This document shows, one piece after another, positions 2 through 7,500 of a DNA stretch of 64,000 nucleotides (position 1 is the first letter of the stretch; each line of letters starts with the position of its first letter). The notes beneath the pieces were generated by a model. It did no database searches, was not told the DNA's origin, and saw only the letters and a list, made by a program, of their open reading frames with translations. The DNA comes from an uncultured Selenomonadaceae bacterium. GTDB lineage: Bacteria > Bacillota > Negativicutes > Selenomonadales > Selenomonadaceae. The stretch spans positions 3,740 to 67,739 of the forward strand of contig CALELM010000046.1 of assembly GCA_937902665.1 (NCBI GenBank), read 5' to 3'. The translations under genes were made by a program, and so were the position numbers.

Positions 2-1075
2 GCCATTTGGACGAATCCGGAAGCCCTCAGCGTTATCTATGACGAGATGTGCGCGGATGCTGGCGTGGAGGTTCTTTATCATACCGTGCTGGTTGACATT
101 ATCAAGGAGGGGACGGAGATTTCCTGTTGTGTGGTGCAGACGATTGCCGGCTTGCGGGCAGTGAGGGCAAAGACCTTTATTGATTGCTCTGGCGATGCGA
201 TTCTTGCCCGCACGGCAGGTGTCCCGTGCGAGCGCGGTTTTGAGAAAACAGGCAAGAACCAGCCGATGTCCTTTCGCTTTGAGATGGCAGGCATTGATAT
301 CGACAGGCTCTACCAGCATGTGGCAGTGGAACTGGGGGATACTTTCTGCCTGACCAAGCCACCATATTTTGAGATTGGCGAGGCAAGGCATCGGGCAAGG
401 AAGTATGTTCTGGAAAAGTTCATGATGGACGGGGTTGCATCGGGAGAACTGACGGAAGCAGATGCGGAGTACATGCAGGCGTATGTCATTATCGGAAAGC
501 CGGGTTGTATGTCGATGAACTGTCCGGAGCTTCCTTTGGAATACAGTGCGACGGATCCGATTTCCTACAGTCGAGGCGTGCGTGTCGGCAGGCAGATGAT
601 GCGCCGCATCAGCCAGTATTTCATCAAGCACATGCCGGGCTTTGAGCATGCATATCTTGCCAAGGAAGCCTCTATGCTTGGTGCGCGTGAATCATGGCGC
701 ATCAAGGGCAAGTTCTACATGACGGAGGACGACTATCATAACCAAAGCCGTTTTCCGGATGCAGTGGCAAGGACGGCATGGTTCATTGATGCGCATGGCG
801 AAAAGGTCACGGAGAAGCTGCCGAAGGGGGCTTATTACGAAATCCCGTACCGTGCGCTTGTTGCAAAAGAAGTACCGAACCTCATCACGGCAGGGCGGTG
901 CATCAGTGCAAGCTTTATCTTGCAGGCATCCATGCGAATCCAGTTGACCTGCATGAGCATCGGAGAGGCCGCTGGCATCGCGGCGGCGTGGGGACTGCGC
1001 CATCAAGTGCCTGCTGGTGAGATAGCATGGGAAAGCTTGCCCAAGAGCGAGAGAAGTTATGTGACCAGTGGTTGA
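2..1075 (+). CDS. FAD-dependent oxidoreductase (5' end lies outside the window)
   Basis: The frame is open from base 2 with no upstream stop. The 342-aa tracked ORF has a C-terminal ITAGRCISAS...GEAAGIAAA pattern typical of FAD_oxidored-type flavoproteins. It ends at TGA 1073-1075. Confidence 0.65.
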   Translation, partial: AIWTNPEALSVIYDEMCADAGVEVLYHTVLVDIIKEGTEISCCVVQTIAGLRAVRAKTFIDCSGDAILARTAGVPCERGFEKTGKNQPMSFRFEMAGIDIDRLYQHVAVELGDTFCLTKPPYFEIGEARHRARKYVLEKFMMDGVASGELTEADAEYMQAYVIIGKPGCMSMNCPELPLEYSATDPISYSRGVRVGRQMMRRISQYFIKHMPGFEHAYLAKEASMLGARESWRIKGKFYMTEDDYHNQSRFPDAVARTAWFIDAHGEKVTEKLPKGAYYEIPYRALVAKEVPNLITAGRCISASFILQASMRIQLTCMSIGEAAGIAAAWGLRHQVPAGEIAWESLPKSERSYVTSG

Positions 1076-1086
1076 AGAAAGATATC
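1058..1086 (+). repeat. Left copy of a 29-bp direct repeat (att-like); it carries the last 5 codons and stop of the oxidoreductase
   Basis: TATGTGACCAGTGGTTGAAGAAAGATATC matches 2156-2184 at 27/29 positions. Confidence 0.8.
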
Positions 1087-1117
1087 ATTATGTCGTGACA
1101 TAGCATCTCATTATTGA

Positions 1118-1309
1118 TATAAGCCGGATGAGCTTCCCGGCAAGTCCATAAAGGAGAAGCGAGGCGGCATTGACCCTGACGACATAGCGCCTACGCTTGT
1201 TGCTATGGATGCGTCAAAACTTGGCGTAATTGATGGCACGGGCATAAGACGCTTGACCATACGGGAGTGCCAGAGGCTGTGCGGATACCCTCATGAAATT
1301 AACAGCTAG
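1118..1309 (+). pseudogene. DNA (cytosine-5) methyltransferase fragment (end of the target-recognition domain plus motif IX only)
   Basis: An open frame with no start codon reads ...DDIAPTLVAMDASKLGVIDGTGIRRLTIRECQRLCGYPHEINS*. The RRLTxRECxRLxGxP signature is C5-MTase motif IX. Motifs I-VIII and motif X (GNAV) are absent. Confidence 0.7.
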
Positions 1310-1332
1310 AGAAGTATTTGACAAGCTGATAA

Positions 1333-1635
1333 ATGACGAAAAATTCTGCACAGGAAGGCACAATAAAATTTTTCCTTGGAAGCGTGGACATTATCGTTAA
1401 GCAACGTGATGTCGTAGGCAACATCATGCAAGAGTGGCTGGAAGGATGGCTAAAAAAGAATGGCGTGGAGTATGCAGTAAGTGAAAATACCCAGATGCCA
1501 CCGGACTTTTTCCTTGACAAGGAGAACCGCACAAAGGCTCTGCTGGAGATTAAGGCATTCGAAAAAAAGTCTGAACAGCTGTGTACACTAAAAGAACAAA
1601 TGGCAAAGTATATTAACGAAACGGGCGATTTTTAA
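1333..1635 (+). CDS. Putative truncated PD-(D/E)XK type II restriction endonuclease
   Basis: The 100-aa ORF contains PPDFFLD...LLEIKAF, which fits a PD...ExK nuclease core. It sits between the MTase remnant and vsr. It is short for a restriction enzyme, so it is probably a remnant. Confidence 0.4.
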   Translation: MTKNSAQEGTIKFFLGSVDIIVKQRDVVGNIMQEWLEGWLKKNGVEYAVSENTQMPPDFFLDKENRTKALLEIKAFEKKSEQLCTLKEQMAKYINETGDF

Positions 1636-1638
1636 TAA

Positions 1639-2046
1639 ATGGGTTATTTAACGAAGGAACAGCGCAGCCACATAATGAAAAGCATACATTCGCATGACAC
1701 GGCTTCCGAGGTCATGCTCCGCAAGGCGCTTTGGCATCGTGGGCTGCGTTATCGCAAAAATTACAAGGGACTGCCCGGTTCGCCAGATATTGTCCTGACA
1801 CGCCAAAAAATCGCCATCTTTGTAGACGGCGATTTTTGGCACGGCAAAGGGCATCTCGACAATCCGGGCGAACAGATTGGCACCAATAAATCCTATTGGC
1901 AGGCAAAGCTGCAACGCAATGTCGAGCGTGACAAGGAAAACAATGACGACTTGACGCAGGCAGGCTGGCTGGTGCTGCGTTTTTGGGAGTCCGAGGTCAA
2001 AAAAGATTTGGATGGGTGCATAGAAAGAATATTTGCCTACCTTTGA
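1639..2046 (+). CDS. vsr: Very short patch repair endonuclease Vsr
   Basis: 135 aa. SHIMKSIHSHDTASEVMLRKALWHRGLRYRKN...PGSPDIVLTRQKIAIFVDGDFWHG is the canonical Vsr signature. The start lies 3 nt after the upstream stop. Confidence 0.9.
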   Translation: MGYLTKEQRSHIMKSIHSHDTASEVMLRKALWHRGLRYRKNYKGLPGSPDIVLTRQKIAIFVDGDFWHGKGHLDNPGEQIGTNKSYWQAKLQRNVERDKENNDDLTQAGWLVLRFWESEVKKDLDGCIERIFAYL

Positions 2047-2155
2047 GCCGGCAGTTTTGTTCAAGATGATATGAACTGTCAGTTCCGTTCAATGTTCCGG
2101 ATATTCCGGATTGTCGTGCGACAACAAAGACAGGCGCATGATGCAGGCATGGCGC

Positions 2156-2184
2156 TATGTAACCAGTGGCTGAAGAAAGATATC
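2156..2184 (+). repeat. Right copy of the 29-bp direct repeat
   Basis: TATGTAACCAGTGGCTGAAGAAAGATATC also reads Y-V-T-S-G-stop. The two mismatches to the left copy are synonymous. Confidence 0.8.
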
Positions 2185-3330: not shown

Positions 3331-3625
3331 TCCAATCTTAAGAAAACACTAACTACAGATAAGGTTCGCCGTTTTTAGGGAAAAATCCTGCTTGTGCATG
3401 AAAATAACTCTTTGCCTCGCAAAGAGAAAGGCTTGCACGTTATTTTTGAAAGTCCATTGGCTGGTATAAATGCAGGAAATCATGTATAATTGCAGGAAAG
3501 GACAGTAATATGCTTGGAAACGGATTGCTTAAGCCGGGTTCTTTCCTTAACCTTGTCAAAACGGGTGAGTGGCTTTAGCTTTTCATTGTGGCATATCAAC
3601 CTATTTCGTGCGAGGAGAGAACAAT

Positions 3626-4903
3626 ATGGCATTTGACAAGAAAAGGTTCGAGGAAATTATTTCTGAGTTTACGATGGGCACGGAGGAATTGCAAAGGACG
3701 GCAGAAGCATTCCAAAGGGAAATTCGCATTGGCTTGGAGGATGCAGGAAAATCTTCCCTCCAGATGCTCAGATCTTATGCTGGATTGCCCACGGGCAAGG
3801 AAACAGGAGAGTATCTTGCGCTGGACTTTGGCGGAACGAACGTGCGGGTCCTCCGTATCCGATTGGAGGGCGGCGGCAGGTTTGAGATTGCAGGCAGGTC
3901 GGCAAGACCGCTTCGTGCGGAAGGCGAGTACGATTACATTTGCTCGGAAGCCAAAGCGGAGGAAATGTTTGATTTTCTTGCTGGGTTGATCGAGGAGGCT
4001 GTGGAAGGTGATCGGGAAAAGAAATATTTTCTCGGACATACGTTTTCCTTTCCGTCGGAGCAGACAAATCTTTACAATGCAAGGCTTATCGCATGGACCA
4101 AGGAATTTGCAACACAGGGCGTTGAGGGCAAGGTAGTCAATGACCTCTTGAAGGAGGCACTGGCAAGGAAGGGGCTGTCCAATGTCGAGCCGGTAGCTGT
4201 CATCAACGATACGGTTGCTGTCCTTCTCTCGGCTGCGTACAAGCAGGAAGGAGTCTATATCGGCTCCATTTATGCAACGGGACACAATACTTGCTACCTT
4301 GAACCTCATGCAGATGCCGAGGGCAGGGCAATGATCCTGAACCTTGAGGCAGGAGGCTTTGACAAGGTTTCCAGAAATCGGTTTGACGAGAAGGTGGATG
4401 CATTATCAGAGCGGCCAGGGACGCAACGGTTGGAAAAAATGGTTTCCGGCCGATATATGGGAGAGCTGCTTGGCATTGCCTTGGGCAGCCTCTACGAAAT
4501 GGATGAAATAGATTACGGCTTTACGAGCATTGATATGTCAGAGATGCTTCAAAGTGAAGGCTCTGTTGAGGGGATTGTCTCCAAGAAGCTGGGGAAGGTA
4601 CCGGATATGGAGGAATGCAGGGCTGTTCAGTGTTTGGCACGGGTGATTGCGGAGCGTTCCGCCCGTCTTGTAGCAGCAACGTTTGTCGGCACGATGCGGC
4701 AGCTTTCTGGCGAGGAACCTATAAAAAGGCAGCATATCGCCGTAGATGGATCTGTTTACGAAAAAATGCCGGGAGTCAAGGCATGTATGGAAAGCGCCTT
4801 TCTTGAGCTTCTTGGCGAGGAAGCGGGCAAGGTGGATACAGTCTTGGATTGTGGTGGTTCTGGACTTGGCGCTGCCATTGCGGCAGTTGTTTCTAAGCAG
4901 TAA
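3626..4903 (+). CDS. Hexokinase-family sugar kinase
   Basis: LALDFGGTNVRVLRI phosphate-1 motif plus hexokinase-like architecture. I prefer the ATG at 3626, preceded by GAGGAGAGA, over the tracked GTG at 3569. Confidence 0.85.
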   Translation: MAFDKKRFEEIISEFTMGTEELQRTAEAFQREIRIGLEDAGKSSLQMLRSYAGLPTGKETGEYLALDFGGTNVRVLRIRLEGGGRFEIAGRSARPLRAEGEYDYICSEAKAEEMFDFLAGLIEEAVEGDREKKYFLGHTFSFPSEQTNLYNARLIAWTKEFATQGVEGKVVNDLLKEALARKGLSNVEPVAVINDTVAVLLSAAYKQEGVYIGSIYATGHNTCYLEPHADAEGRAMILNLEAGGFDKVSRNRFDEKVDALSERPGTQRLEKMVSGRYMGELLGIALGSLYEMDEIDYGFTSIDMSEMLQSEGSVEGIVSKKLGKVPDMEECRAVQCLARVIAERSARLVAATFVGTMRQLSGEEPIKRQHIAVDGSVYEKMPGVKACMESAFLELLGEEAGKVDTVLDCGGSGLGAAIAAVVSKQ

Positions 4904-5045: not shown

Positions 5046-5086
5046 CAACAAAAAGCGAGCTTGCAACATACCACTGCAAGCCCGCT
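5046..5086 (-). terminator. Intrinsic terminator of the orphan minus-strand transcript
   Basis: On the minus strand: GCGGGCTTGCA-loop-TGCAAGCTCGC (10/11 bp) followed by TTTTTGTTG. Confidence 0.6.
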
Positions 5087-5606
5087 TCACTCGTTATAAA
5101 CCATGTAACGAAAACCCCTATTCTTTTGTCTGTATGCGAACTTCTTAAGCAGCACCGCACACGAAGATACGAAAACCGTTTAGCTAAACATGAACACCAC
5201 GCACGCAACGCCCGCAAGCTCACCGCCATCGGCAGGCAACAAGAACCCAACGAAAAACGAAGCAAACCAGACAACCGCATGCAACACAAGAAATGGAAAA
5301 CCGCCACAAACTAGTGGAATAGCGCCAGCCACTGCCAACAGATGACAATGCACACGAGAATCCACGGATGACTCGAGTTCGCATGACGCCCAAGCAACAT
5401 TGCGACTCCCTGCATTCCAATGGAAAAGTCTCACTTCATAAGCTGCACTCATCAATCAGCCAGAAGGCATTCCAGTTGAAATAACCAATACGCAACCACC
5501 CTTCCTGACAAGTACCTAAGTACAAAGGAGGCCTGTTTCGGCTGCCAAGCGGTTTGGAACTCACCTCGCAAGATTCGTGCCACCTGCTTGCCCATCTCCC
5601 TTTCAT
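5047..5606 (-). ncRNA. Candidate ~560-nt non-coding or leader transcript (unclassified)
   Basis: It is bounded by a near-consensus promoter and an intrinsic terminator. The sense strand is conspicuously A-poor and G/U-rich. The overlapping ORFs lack convincing ribosome-binding sites or homology. Confidence 0.35.
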
Positions 5607-5612
5607 GTTCTC

Positions 5613-5641
5613 ATTATAGCACACTGTTTGACGGTTTGCAA
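5613..5641 (-). promoter_or_regulatory. Sigma-70-type promoter with an extended -10
   Basis: The minus strand reads TTGCAA-17 nt-(TGc)TATAAT. The predicted transcription start is near 5606. Confidence 0.65.
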
Positions 5642-5823
5642 GATTCTGAAAATGAAAATTGAATGAAAATTAAAATAAATTTATGGATTTCAGCGTGATA
5701 CAAAATGCGAAGCTGAAAATATCTGTGTTTTTTGCAAAAAAAGAAGGGGAAAAAGAAGATGCGTGGAATATATATGGTATGTTGACTGATTGTTTAGGGG
5801 GTGACGGTACTGTGGAAGAAAAA

Positions 5824-7500
5824 ATGGTAATGCTGGTCGTTGACGATGAGGAGAGCGAACGTTTGATTCTGAAACAGTCCTTCCAAGAAGATTTTGAGAT
5901 TGTTGAAGCTGAAAATGGGGCAATGGCATTGGAGATTTTGGAGTCACAGCCCATAAATATCGTGCTGACAGATATTTCCATGCCGGTAATGGACGGTCTT
6001 GCTTTGCTGGGGACGATGCAGGAATCACGGAAGTTTTCCGAAATCCCTGTGATCGCTATGACCATGTACAATGACAGGGACAAGGAGGAAAAGGCGATCG
6101 AGCTAGGTGCAGCAGATTTTCTGACGAAGCCTGTCCGCAGGAAGCTGGCACATGCCAGAGTGAGCAATGTTTTGGGCAGAAGGGAGAACGAGTGGCGAAG
6201 GCAGGCAAGGAAGGCAGGGGAACAGGAAATGGTTTCCATGCGAAACCATATTGAGACGGATGCCTTGACAGGTCTTTGCAACAGGGAGAGCTTTTATCGT
6301 CAGGCAGGGGCTATGATGCGCAGCAACAGCGAGGTACTGCATGATATTGTGTATTTTAACATTCATAAATTCAAGACGATCAATGAGCTTTTTCATAGGG
6401 AAACAGGAAATAGCATACTAAAGACGGCAGCAAGGTATTTTCAGGATATTTTTGGGGAACGTGGCGTTTGTGCCCGTTTGGAAGCGGATCGGTTCGTGAT
6501 ATGTGTTTCAGACGAGTTTTTGGATATGGAGCAGCTTTTCGAAGGCTTGAATGGCACGATCAAGTCATTGGGAATCAATTATGACATTCAGTTTTTTGCA
6601 GGCGTTTATCCTGTGGATAATGTGTTTCTTCCTGTCAGCAAGATGTGTGACAGGGCAAGAATGGCACTTGAGAAAATAAGGAGCGGCAGCAATGTGCGCT
6701 ATGTGCGTTACGATGAGGAAATGAGCCGCCTTCTCATGGAAGAGCAGGTGATTCTCCGTGATATGGAACGGGCGCTTTATGAGAAGCAGTTTTGCATTTA
6801 CTTGCAGCCTGTCTATGACCTGCTGTGCGACAGCATTGTTGGGGCAGAGGCCTTGGTTCGTTGGAACCACCCTCAGGAGGGAATGATTTCGCCGGGGCAT
6901 TTTATTCCCGTGTTTGAGCGCAATGGCTTTATAGCGCGGCTGGATCATTATGTTTGGGATCAGGTTTGCCGTTTTTTGAGGGACGTTAAGGATACCTATG
7001 GTCGTGTGATTCCGATTTCCGTAAATATATCAAAGTTGAATTTTTATGACGCCGACCTGCCGAAGCATTTGATGCGGCTCATTCAAAAATATCATTTGGA
7101 GCCATGGATGCTGAAGCTGGAAATTACGGAAAATGCTTATATGGAAAATCGGCTGCGGGTGATTTCCACAGTTCGGGCGCTTCGGGAGCAAGGTTTTTCC
7201 GTGTTGCTGGATGATTTCGGCAGCGGCTATTCTTCCTTGATGATGCTCAAGGATCTGCCTGTGGACATGCTGAAAATCGATCTGAGGTTTGCGCAGGAGG
7301 CGGCAGGGGATTCTGAAAGGGCAAGGTCTTTGCTGCAGTGTATTCTGCATTTGTCAGAGGAATTGGATATCCGTATTATCATGGAGGGCGTGGAAACGGA
7401 GCAGCAGGCGGACTTCTTCGTGTCGCTGGGCTGTCAGGATTTTCAGGGATATTATTTCTCCTGCCCCGTGCCGACGGATGTGTTCAAGGCTTTGATTTGA
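5824..7500 (+). CDS. Response-regulator receiver, degenerate GGDEF and EAL domain protein (c-di-GMP phosphodiesterase type)
   Basis: MVMLVVDDEE receiver start. The GGDEF position reads LEADRF. The EAL motifs are intact (EALVRW, DDFGSGYSSL, EGVETE). The tracked ORF starts at 5683, but the ATG at 5824 fits a receiver N-terminus and leaves promoter space. Confidence 0.85.
   Translation: MVMLVVDDEESERLILKQSFQEDFEIVEAENGAMALEILESQPINIVLTDISMPVMDGLALLGTMQESRKFSEIPVIAMTMYNDRDKEEKAIELGAADFLTKPVRRKLAHARVSNVLGRRENEWRRQARKAGEQEMVSMRNHIETDALTGLCNRESFYRQAGAMMRSNSEVLHDIVYFNIHKFKTINELFHRETGNSILKTAARYFQDIFGERGVCARLEADRFVICVSDEFLDMEQLFEGLNGTIKSLGINYDIQFFAGVYPVDNVFLPVSKMCDRARMALEKIRSGSNVRYVRYDEEMSRLLMEEQVILRDMERALYEKQFCIYLQPVYDLLCDSIVGAEALVRWNHPQEGMISPGHFIPVFERNGFIARLDHYVWDQVCRFLRDVKDTYGRVIPISVNISKLNFYDADLPKHLMRLIQKYHLEPWMLKLEITENAYMENRLRVISTVRALREQGFSVLLDDFGSGYSSLMMLKDLPVDMLKIDLRFAQEAAGDSERARSLLQCILHLSEELDIRIIMEGVETEQQADFFVSLGCQDFQGYYFSCPVPTDVFKALI

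Follow-up and report, generated by a model that had tools for sequence, protein, structure and literature searches.

A probable family of structured RNAs confined to the Selenomonadaceae, with conserved palindromic loops

Introduction

Large, intricately folded RNAs are rare in bacteria; among those known are the ribosome, RNase P, the group I and II introns, and the OLE, ROOL, GOLLD and raiA RNAs. Such molecules carry out basic biochemistry or, as was shown in 2025, form unexpected RNA-only assemblies. Here we describe a predicted RNA gene on the minus strand of a stretch of 64,000 nt (hereafter the window; positions are counted from its first letter) from an uncultured Selenomonadaceae bacterium, contig CALELM010000046.1. 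From its promoter, its terminator, its homologues and their covarying helices, it is very probable that this unit is a divergent, full-length member of a conserved family of structured non-coding RNAs (ncRNAs) confined to the Selenomonadaceae.

Several described RNAs resemble the family in part. The raiA motif RNA (RF03072) of Firmicutes is likewise a structured, orphan ncRNA, expressed at a high level from a promoter of its own and ending at its own terminator; it differs from the family in its length, about 200 nt, and in its fold. In the dimerization initiation site (DIS) of HIV-1, a purine-flanked 6-nt palindrome is displayed in an apical loop of 8-9 nt on a stable stem, and a dimer forms through a loop-loop kissing contact; since the DIS belongs to a viral genome and not to a bacterial ncRNA, its likeness to the hairpin H13 described below is an analogy of mechanism only. 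OLE (RF01071) is alike in its format, with about 600 nt, many helices and a stand-alone gene in anaerobic Firmicutes. It forms a homodimer, for which a palindrome-switching loop was used as evidence of intermolecular pairing (PMC12286853). In contrast to OLE, the family occurs in another host group, the diderm Selenomonadaceae, in rumen metagenomes; it shows no likeness to OLE in sequence, and no gene of the oapA type, for an OLE-associated protein, was noticed among the neighbours examined. ROOL (RF03087) and GOLLD (RF01998) are likewise large, ornate RNAs that were first found partly in rumen metagenomes, and both are RNA-only homo-oligomers held together by kissing loops. Each has a variable, unstructured linker within a conserved fold (PMC12286853). 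Unlike these two, the family is not found on phages or plasmids; a carrier genome has a single copy, on the chromosome, whose gene neighbours are conserved in part, and oligomerisation is only proposed for it. The covariance models of HEARO, OLE, ROOL, GOLLD and raiA in Rfam 15 were matched neither by the window copy nor by the homologues searched.

Homologues in the Selenomonadaceae

An earlier note on this DNA, made from the sequence alone, had presented the unit as an orphan and as a candidate large ncRNA. The second proposal has held and the first has not: a profile of the core of the unit matches copies in 82 of 262 Selenomonadaceae genomes from 19 genera, and these form a conserved family, supported by covariation, whose members have a promoter and a terminator of their own. 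By blastn over the 262 genomes, a single distant match was obtained (76% identity over transcript nt 97-200, E = 4.5e-12), in a metagenome-assembled genome titled Selenomonadaceae bacterium UBA3796, where the element has the same promoter and its own terminator but lies among other genes, one for a TPR protein and one for a radical SAM protein. A sequence-only profile of the conserved core, R1, built from the window genus and one other genus, matched 53 genomes of 16 genera with E-values down to 1e-31. The broader profile R2, built from 38 members, matched at E <= 1e-4 in the 82 genomes mentioned, which include 58 of the 140 high-quality ones and represent 19 of 40 genera; the window scores E = 4e-23 with R2, being itself in the seed alignment. 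Among 401 genomes of the class Negativicutes, all strong R2 matches fell within the Selenomonadaceae. Ten weak matches (E 0.002-0.01), no better than chance, were seen outside the family; the eight inspected lie inside apparent coding genes and have no family-type promoter, and we rejected such matches as false positives. Carriers were found mainly in rumen samples.

Nearly every match examined has the promoter TTGnnn-17-TGnTAnnnT at a fixed distance upstream, and for most of those checked a hairpin with a U-run is detectable 325-600 nt downstream. We took as the family type an extended -10 element, TGnTAnnnT, 30-65 nt ahead of profile position 1, together with an intrinsic terminator, and the window copy has both. 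The members fall into the following size classes:

325-370 nt: three genera
about 450 nt: one genus
557 nt: the genus of the window
560-600 nt (the long class): most genera

Judged by the profiles, these classes are linked into one family. The window RNA aligns end to end with the long class, the centre excepted, and has in common with it the 5' purine run, AGCCGAAACAGGCC, GGAAGGGUGG..UAUUGG, GAUGAGUGC, GUGCAUUGUCAUC, GUUUAGCUAAAC, GCUUAAGA, ACAGACAAAAGAAUAGGGG and the terminator. A further variant was observed in one species of a mostly 590-nt genus (L188, G061:C10:28550-29280), whose version of about 400 nt runs from the core straight to the 3' motif and has no palindromic domain; the 3' domain would have been lost independently in this species.

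The RNA is single copy in all R2-positive genomes but one, and there are no paralogues in the window genome. The exception, genome G263, has two full-scoring copies on separate contigs (C1:226061-226296 and C21:17405-17640); its contamination is estimated at 4%, and the double copy may reflect a mixed bin rather than a true duplication. No family copy was found in the phage and plasmid collections, and no description of the family in the literature searched. A comparison with Rfam, proposed in the earlier note, was run against Rfam 15 and returned no matching family: in E-value mode nothing relevant appeared at E <= 10 for the window copy and a 590-nt member, and at the gathering score neither the unit nor its homologues were matched when the whole window and 18 homologous loci were scanned. 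A search of the hexokinase flank at 100 loci (blastn, nhmmer, tblastx) found no homologue, because the RNA sits elsewhere in other genera.

The transcription unit

The unit is bounded by the following elements:

5636 to 5641, minus strand: -35 hexamer TTGCAA, from a consensus scan; a matching hexamer stands at the equal relative position in nearly all family members checked
5613 to 5621, minus strand: extended -10 element TGcTATAAT, from a consensus scan; every family promoter listed reads TGnTAnnnT
5050 to 5606, minus strand: predicted RNA gene of 557 nt, bounded by promoter and terminator and homologous from end to end with the 560-600-nt class
5050 to 5086 (T-run to 5046), minus strand: intrinsic terminator with a 12-bp stem, AGCGGGCUUGCA / UGCAAGCUCGCU, a 9-nt loop and the U-run UUUUUGUU; from the fold, its helix (H14) covarying across the family

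Much of the earlier description of this unit was borne out. The sigma-70 promoter with an extended -10 was found at 5641-5613, TTGCAA-17-TATAAT with TG ahead of the -10, with 10 of 12 matches to the consensus, and the promoter type recurs in nearly all homologues checked. The stem-loop and T-run (5086-5046) lie about 555 nt downstream of the promoter, and the 3' segment that contains them folds with z = -3.35; our terminator scan allows loops of up to 8 nt and skipped this terminator, with its 9-nt loop, for that reason only. The 5' end of the RNA is placed about 7 nt past the -10 and the 3' end in the U-run of the terminator. The A-poverty ascribed to the transcript stands for nt 262-417, where A makes up 6% (10 of 156), and does not stand as a global trait, the whole transcript having 17.6% A against 26.5% in the genome; it is a regional property of the central segment.

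A block, TCAGAATC, immediately ahead of the -35 (TCAGAATCTTGCAA; window 5642-5655), is conserved in several rumen genera (promoters of loci L126-L129, L149, L190 and L203), and in a genus of the oral type a related word, TCTGA, is found inside the promoter spacer instead (TTGCAATnnTCTGA). The block may be a site at which a regulator of the RNA promoter binds.

Secondary structure and covariation

A MAFFT alignment of 21 long-class members gave, with RNAalifold, a structure of 76 pairs in 14 helices. In this structure 92.5% of the cells are paired, against 42-44% in slid controls and 84.6% in shuffles; 39 pairs changed on both sides (16-19 in the slid controls and 22.9 +/- 2.3 in the shuffles, 0 of 500 reaching 39) and so did 141 cells (21-39 and 44.6 +/- 5.4, with 0 of 500 reaching 141), figures which are somewhat inflated, the structure having been predicted and counted on one alignment, and whose margin is large. 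The features of the window copy are as follows:

5596 to 5601, minus strand: 5' strand of H1, AGGGAG, with its partner CUCCUUU at 5530-5524
5586 to 5592, minus strand: 5' strand of H2, GGCAAGC, with its partner GCUUGGC at 5550-5544; in the long class 5 of 8 pairs changed on both sides
5524 to 5550, minus strand: 3' strand of H2 (5550-5544), H3 hairpin AGCC-GAAACA-GGCC (5543-5530) and 3' strand of H1 (5530-5524)
5512 to 5523, minus strand: hairpin GUAC-UUAG-GUAC, a genus-specific insert in a variable linker, missing or replaced in other genera
5485 to 5505, minus strand: conserved core GGAAGGGUGGUUGCGUAUUGG, family consensus GAAAGGAUGUG..UUAUUGA, the block that yielded the first distant homologue
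5445 to 5453, minus strand: 5' strands of H6/H7, GAUGA-GUGC, with the partner GCAU..UCAUC at 5351-5341; covariation in the long class
5375 to 5408, minus strand: H9/H10 hairpin, GAGUCGCA...UGCGAACUC, which covaries in the long class and holds the AGGGAG and the start of the 29-aa open reading frame (ORF) discussed below
5341 to 5351, minus strand: 3' strands of H7/H6; long-class covariation and alignment of the window
5190 to 5338, minus strand: genus-specific G/U-rich, A-poor central segment of 149 nt, not alignable to other genera
5115 to 5131, minus strand: conserved 3' motif AGACAAAAGAAUAGGGG, family consensus GCAGACAAAUGAAUA.GAAGG, from the alignment of homologues

Helix H1 is common to all size classes. 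Over 38 sequences drawn from them it is 99.1% paired, and compensatory changes are seen in 4 of its 6 pairs; its family form is a 5' purine run with CUCUUC, the latter placed after an invariant AGCC-GAAACA-GGCU hairpin, in which the GCC/GGC pairs of H3 are unchanged in 38 of 38 sequences. Just ahead of that hairpin, GCUUGGC pairs with GCAAGC in the family pattern of H2. Both small hairpins remarked on earlier, GCAAG...CUUGC and GUAC-UUAG-GUAC, are in the sequence. Covariation is seen in the long class for H6 and for H7, with both sides altered in each of the 5 pairs of H6, and across classes the helix reads CUGAC/GUCAG, CUGAUGA/UCAUCAG or GAUGA/UCAUC. When the window was added to the alignment it formed 5 of 6 pairs of H1, 6 of 8 of H2, 3 of 4 of H3, 4 of 5 of H6, 4 of 4 of H7, 6 of 6 of H9, 6 of 7 of H10, 2 of 2 of H12 and 8 of 10 of the terminator helix H14; H13 aligned poorly (4 of 8), but the H13 hairpin of the window is evident from folding. 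We infer that the RNA acts as a folded molecule, in an RNA-only or an RNA-protein particle, rather than serving as an mRNA, as a leader or in antisense regulation.

The central segment (5338-5190) stands where the other long members carry a central domain with a second palindrome, and by this alignment the domain is replaced in the window genus by a G/U-rich, A-poor sequence. Its fold, over most of its length (5345-5200), is no more stable than that of shuffles (z = 0.24), and it differs from the sister species at 4.1% of sites, being as conserved as the structured domains. By analogy, the segment may play a part comparable to that of the linker of ROOL and GOLLD.

Comparison with the sister species

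By whole-genome search the region was found in one other species of the genus only, with 96% identity, and an exact-pattern scan across all species genomes revealed no genome beyond the known ones of these two species; six metagenome contigs reached through the hexokinase cluster belong to the window's own species (99.6-100% identity). A comparison of the two species shows 20 differences in 561 transcript sites (3.6%) and two single-base indels, whereas third codon positions differ at 15.3% in the hexokinase gene and 11.5% in the adjacent gene with an EAL domain, and 23% of sites differ in the 65-nt spacer that directly follows the terminator (Fisher p = 6e-11 against the pooled third positions of both genes, 1e-6 against the EAL gene alone and 2e-7 against the spacer). 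The drop in divergence begins exactly at the terminator, and within the transcript the divergence is 3-6 times below that of the third positions and the adjacent spacer. From this difference we therefore conclude, on comparative grounds, that the unit is under purifying selection. Three substitutions in helices supported by the family (H2, H13 and the terminator) were checked, and pairing is preserved in each case: A5588G changes A-U to G-U in H2, G5155A changes G-U to A-U in H13, and with A5061G the terminator pair is kept as U-G. RNAalifold on the two species gave zero compensatory pairs, a comparison in which two species give no statistical power.

Palindromic loops and self-association

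Two sites of the window copy contain palindromes:

5132 to 5162, minus strand: H13 hairpin, by folding, with the 8-nt apical loop GCUUAAGA (5150-5143) and the palindrome CUUAAG (5149-5144)
5178 to 5189, minus strand: H11, GUUUAGCUAAAC, a perfect 12-nt palindrome that could be a hairpin or an intermolecular duplex; other members have GUUUCAGCUGAAC, UUUAGCUAAA or GUUUGGGCCAAAC there

The stem of H13 covaries (5 of 8 pairs compensated) and its apical loop has 7-8 nt in the family. The 3' anchor is present in 39 members, and a 6-nt palindrome occurs in the loop of 38 of them, counting two that were tallied under another loop of that stretch and one folded as a 4-nt TCGA loop. The palindrome reads CUCGAG in most members, CUUAAG in six genera including that of the window, and UCGCGA in one or two genera; the first two forms are separated by a pair of coupled changes, placed at mirror positions. 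The window displays the family arrangement, the palindromic loop GCUUAAGA followed by the GACAAAnGAAUA motif (5131-5115). The long class has a second palindromic site, a few bases ahead of a GUGAU..AUCAC hairpin, where at least nine palindromes are found: GUGUACAC, GUGCAC, GCGCGCGC, GUGCGCAC, GCACGUGC, GUAUAC, GUACGUAC, GAUGCAUC and UGAUAUCA. The short classes are also without this second element, which therefore defines the long class and not the family.

As adjacent bases of one chain cannot pair together, such switching palindromes speak for base pairing from one copy of the RNA to another. The same argument supported the intermolecular bridges of the OLE dimer and the GOLLD cage (PMC12286853). 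On these sequence patterns, self-association of the family RNA through its palindromic loops has, in our estimation, nearly even chances; it is less certain for the window copy than for the family, only part of the apparatus being kept there. The copies would be joined by a loop-loop 'kissing' contact at the apical loop GCUUAAGA of H13, and possibly also at H11. A more ambitious proposal, which we put forward tentatively and consider the less probable outcome, is that these molecules would be a new bacterial RNA class whose members assemble, like OLE, ROOL and GOLLD, into homo-oligomers made of RNA only, dimers or larger. In such an assembly, DIS-like palindromic kissing loops within a 3' 'assembly' domain, joined to a conserved 5' 'core', would provide the contacts, and the size classes would be natural domain variants: the 325-370-nt RNAs would consist of the core only, the 557-nt RNA of the window of the core together with a G/U-rich filler and with one palindromic loop or two, and the 560-600-nt RNAs of the core with a full assembly domain of two or three palindromic elements. 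If this were true, the window RNA would be a natural partial-assembly mutant.

Alternative explanations

Some of the results weigh against the unit being a folded member of this family, beside the inflation of the covariation counts given above. The fold energy of the whole transcript is no better than that of shuffles (z = -1.2), and 3 kb of sequence contain 2 promoter-like sites where shuffles give 2.9 +/- 1.7, such that the single site is not beyond chance. The 557-nt form is known from two species only, which leaves the central segment without comparative support, and the best-supported second palindromic element is missing from the window and from the sister species, where that stretch contains no palindrome of 6 nt or more. 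Lastly, the substitutions against the sister species lean to one codon phase (12/5/3; chi-square p ~0.035), with 10 of the 11 in 5609-5366 in one phase. In that minus-strand frame the stops TGA, TAG and TGA are conserved, and stops also interrupt the plus-strand frame that matches it; both frames in which the changes would be silent hold three conserved stops, and the lean is probably due to chance.

This phase bias, weak as it is, could speak for an mRNA encoding a small hydrophobic protein, for example a type I toxin-like peptide, from the 29-aa ORF behind AGGGAG or from the 91-aa ORF. The ORFs of 91, 66, 183 and 29 aa reported in the earlier note (the last also given as 29/34 aa) do exist, G/U-rich sequence encodes hydrophobic residues, and AGGGAG, which had been taken for a Shine-Dalgarno (SD) sequence, stands 5 nt ahead of the ATG of the 29-aa ORF. 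However, both this AGGGAG and the ATG lie inside helix H9 of the conserved H9/H10 hairpin, and the ORF shows 4 non-synonymous changes to 1 synonymous against the sister species, W to R among them, so the claim for this small ORF was not sustained. The 91-aa ORF fares no better, as the +1 and -1 indels of the sister species shift about 50 of its middle codons; the length of the T-run in the window is identical in 7 of 7 same-species sequences, 6 of them separate metagenome contigs, and is therefore not an assembly error. No ORF of the unit has a Pfam match, none is common to the family members, and gene callers predict differing ORFs (61, 90, 157 or 177 aa) in near-identical copies. From the indels, the changes in the 29-aa ORF and these differing calls, the selection on the unit is not directed at a protein. 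We consider a small-protein mRNA very unlikely, and the type I toxin mRNA was rejected as a candidate, the hydrophobic ORF not being conserved and no plus-strand promoter having been found in the region. Marginally less probable still would be a decayed protein-coding gene, or a non-functional spacer with promoter-like and terminator-like sequences brought together by chance. In favour of such a reading, composition by itself accounts for the open frames, shuffled sequence has promoter-like sites no less often and the fold energy is unexceptional; but tblastx and Pfam give no protein relative, the 3-6 times lower divergence has its boundary exactly at the terminator, and homologues with the same promoter and covarying helices are present in 19 genera. 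The two possibilities that the earlier note had raised against its own proposal, gene decay and a want of conservation or covariation in related genomes, are contradicted by these results.

To much the same small degree we entertain a cis-acting or antisense regulator of the REC-GGDEF-EAL gene or the hexokinase gene, such as a leader linked to cyclic di-GMP (c-di-GMP). The back-to-back promoters in a common AT-rich region (5610-5800) and the two c-di-GMP genes nearby are suggestive of it, whereas the transcript runs away from the EAL gene and ends short of the hexokinase terminator, and the neighbours vary: the long class has YqeB and a TatD-associated radical SAM protein, one genus has flagellin, and UBA3796 has a TPR protein. 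The leader offered as an alternative in the earlier note faces the difficulty that the terminator is followed by a convergent gene, and the partial resemblance to riboswitches was not substantiated, no Rfam family emerging at E <= 10 beyond noise and no riboswitch model matching; on these grounds a riboswitch or 5' leader was rejected. A trans-acting regulator, either a sponge that sequesters CsrA or a protein like it, or an RNA whose G/U-rich segment pairs with A/C-rich RNAs, is improbable, if less so than the preceding readings, and would be compatible with a folded RNA of this family. The 149-nt segment is as conserved against the sister species (4.1%) as the structured domains, yet it is confined to one genus, no long complementary target was found in the genome (best match 20 nt, E = 0.31), and GGA motifs are not enriched in the transcript (6 against 9.6 +/- 2.7 in shuffles), a count on which an RNA of the CsrB/RsmZ type was rejected. 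A divergent RNase P RNA or tmRNA was also rejected, as the genome holds both elsewhere: a type-A-like RNase P RNA on contig C74 (~47750, minus strand; motifs GAGGAAAGUCC...ACAAAACUCGGCUUAU), recognised by eye and not by model, and a tmRNA on contig C11, outside the window. The most likely mode of action of the unit is that of a folded RNA particle, of which self-association is a specific, testable inference.

Genomic context

In the window, the RNA gene lies between a convergent gene of the hexokinase family (3569-4903), which has its own terminator, and a divergent gene for a REC-GGDEF-EAL protein, in agreement with the c-di-GMP phosphodiesterase gene named in the earlier note. In several genera of the long class the gene is found between yqeB (divergent) and genes for a TatD-associated radical SAM protein and a pyridoxamine kinase (convergent), a position that the window copy does not occupy, and in one genus it adjoins flagellin. 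The link to c-di-GMP genes is not conserved; as the neighbours vary between genera, the RNA gene is therefore independent and not a cis element of those genes.

Two further observations concern the surroundings of the unit. In the REC-GGDEF-EAL gene, the ORF of 605 aa opens at 5683 without an SD sequence and its receiver domain begins at about residue 51; a GGAAGA precedes an ATG at ~5824 (window 5683-5830), and in other assemblies the protein is called with 601 or 605 aa. Translation may in truth start at ~5824, which would leave an AT-rich region of 200 nt common to two divergent promoters. Contigs of the same species vary upstream of an HD-GYP gene (L111:1-2422, L113:378-2436, L108:293-700; window 1058-2184). 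Some of them carry genes for a DNA methylase, an NgoBV-type restriction enzyme (full-length in L111, a 114-aa call in L113) and Vsr; contig L112 lacks all of these and continues straight from a Thi4-like gene, and the window seems to keep remains only. The region looks like a strain-variable restriction-modification islet.

Significance

An RNA family of 325-600 nt, present in about half of the Selenomonadaceae genera, was not found in Rfam 15 or in the literature searched, and the palindromes in its loops make its quaternary structure directly testable in vitro. In the window copy a segment of extreme composition has taken the place of the central domain, with the core, one palindromic loop and the 3' motif retained; that such an exchange is possible shows which parts of the RNA are dispensable.

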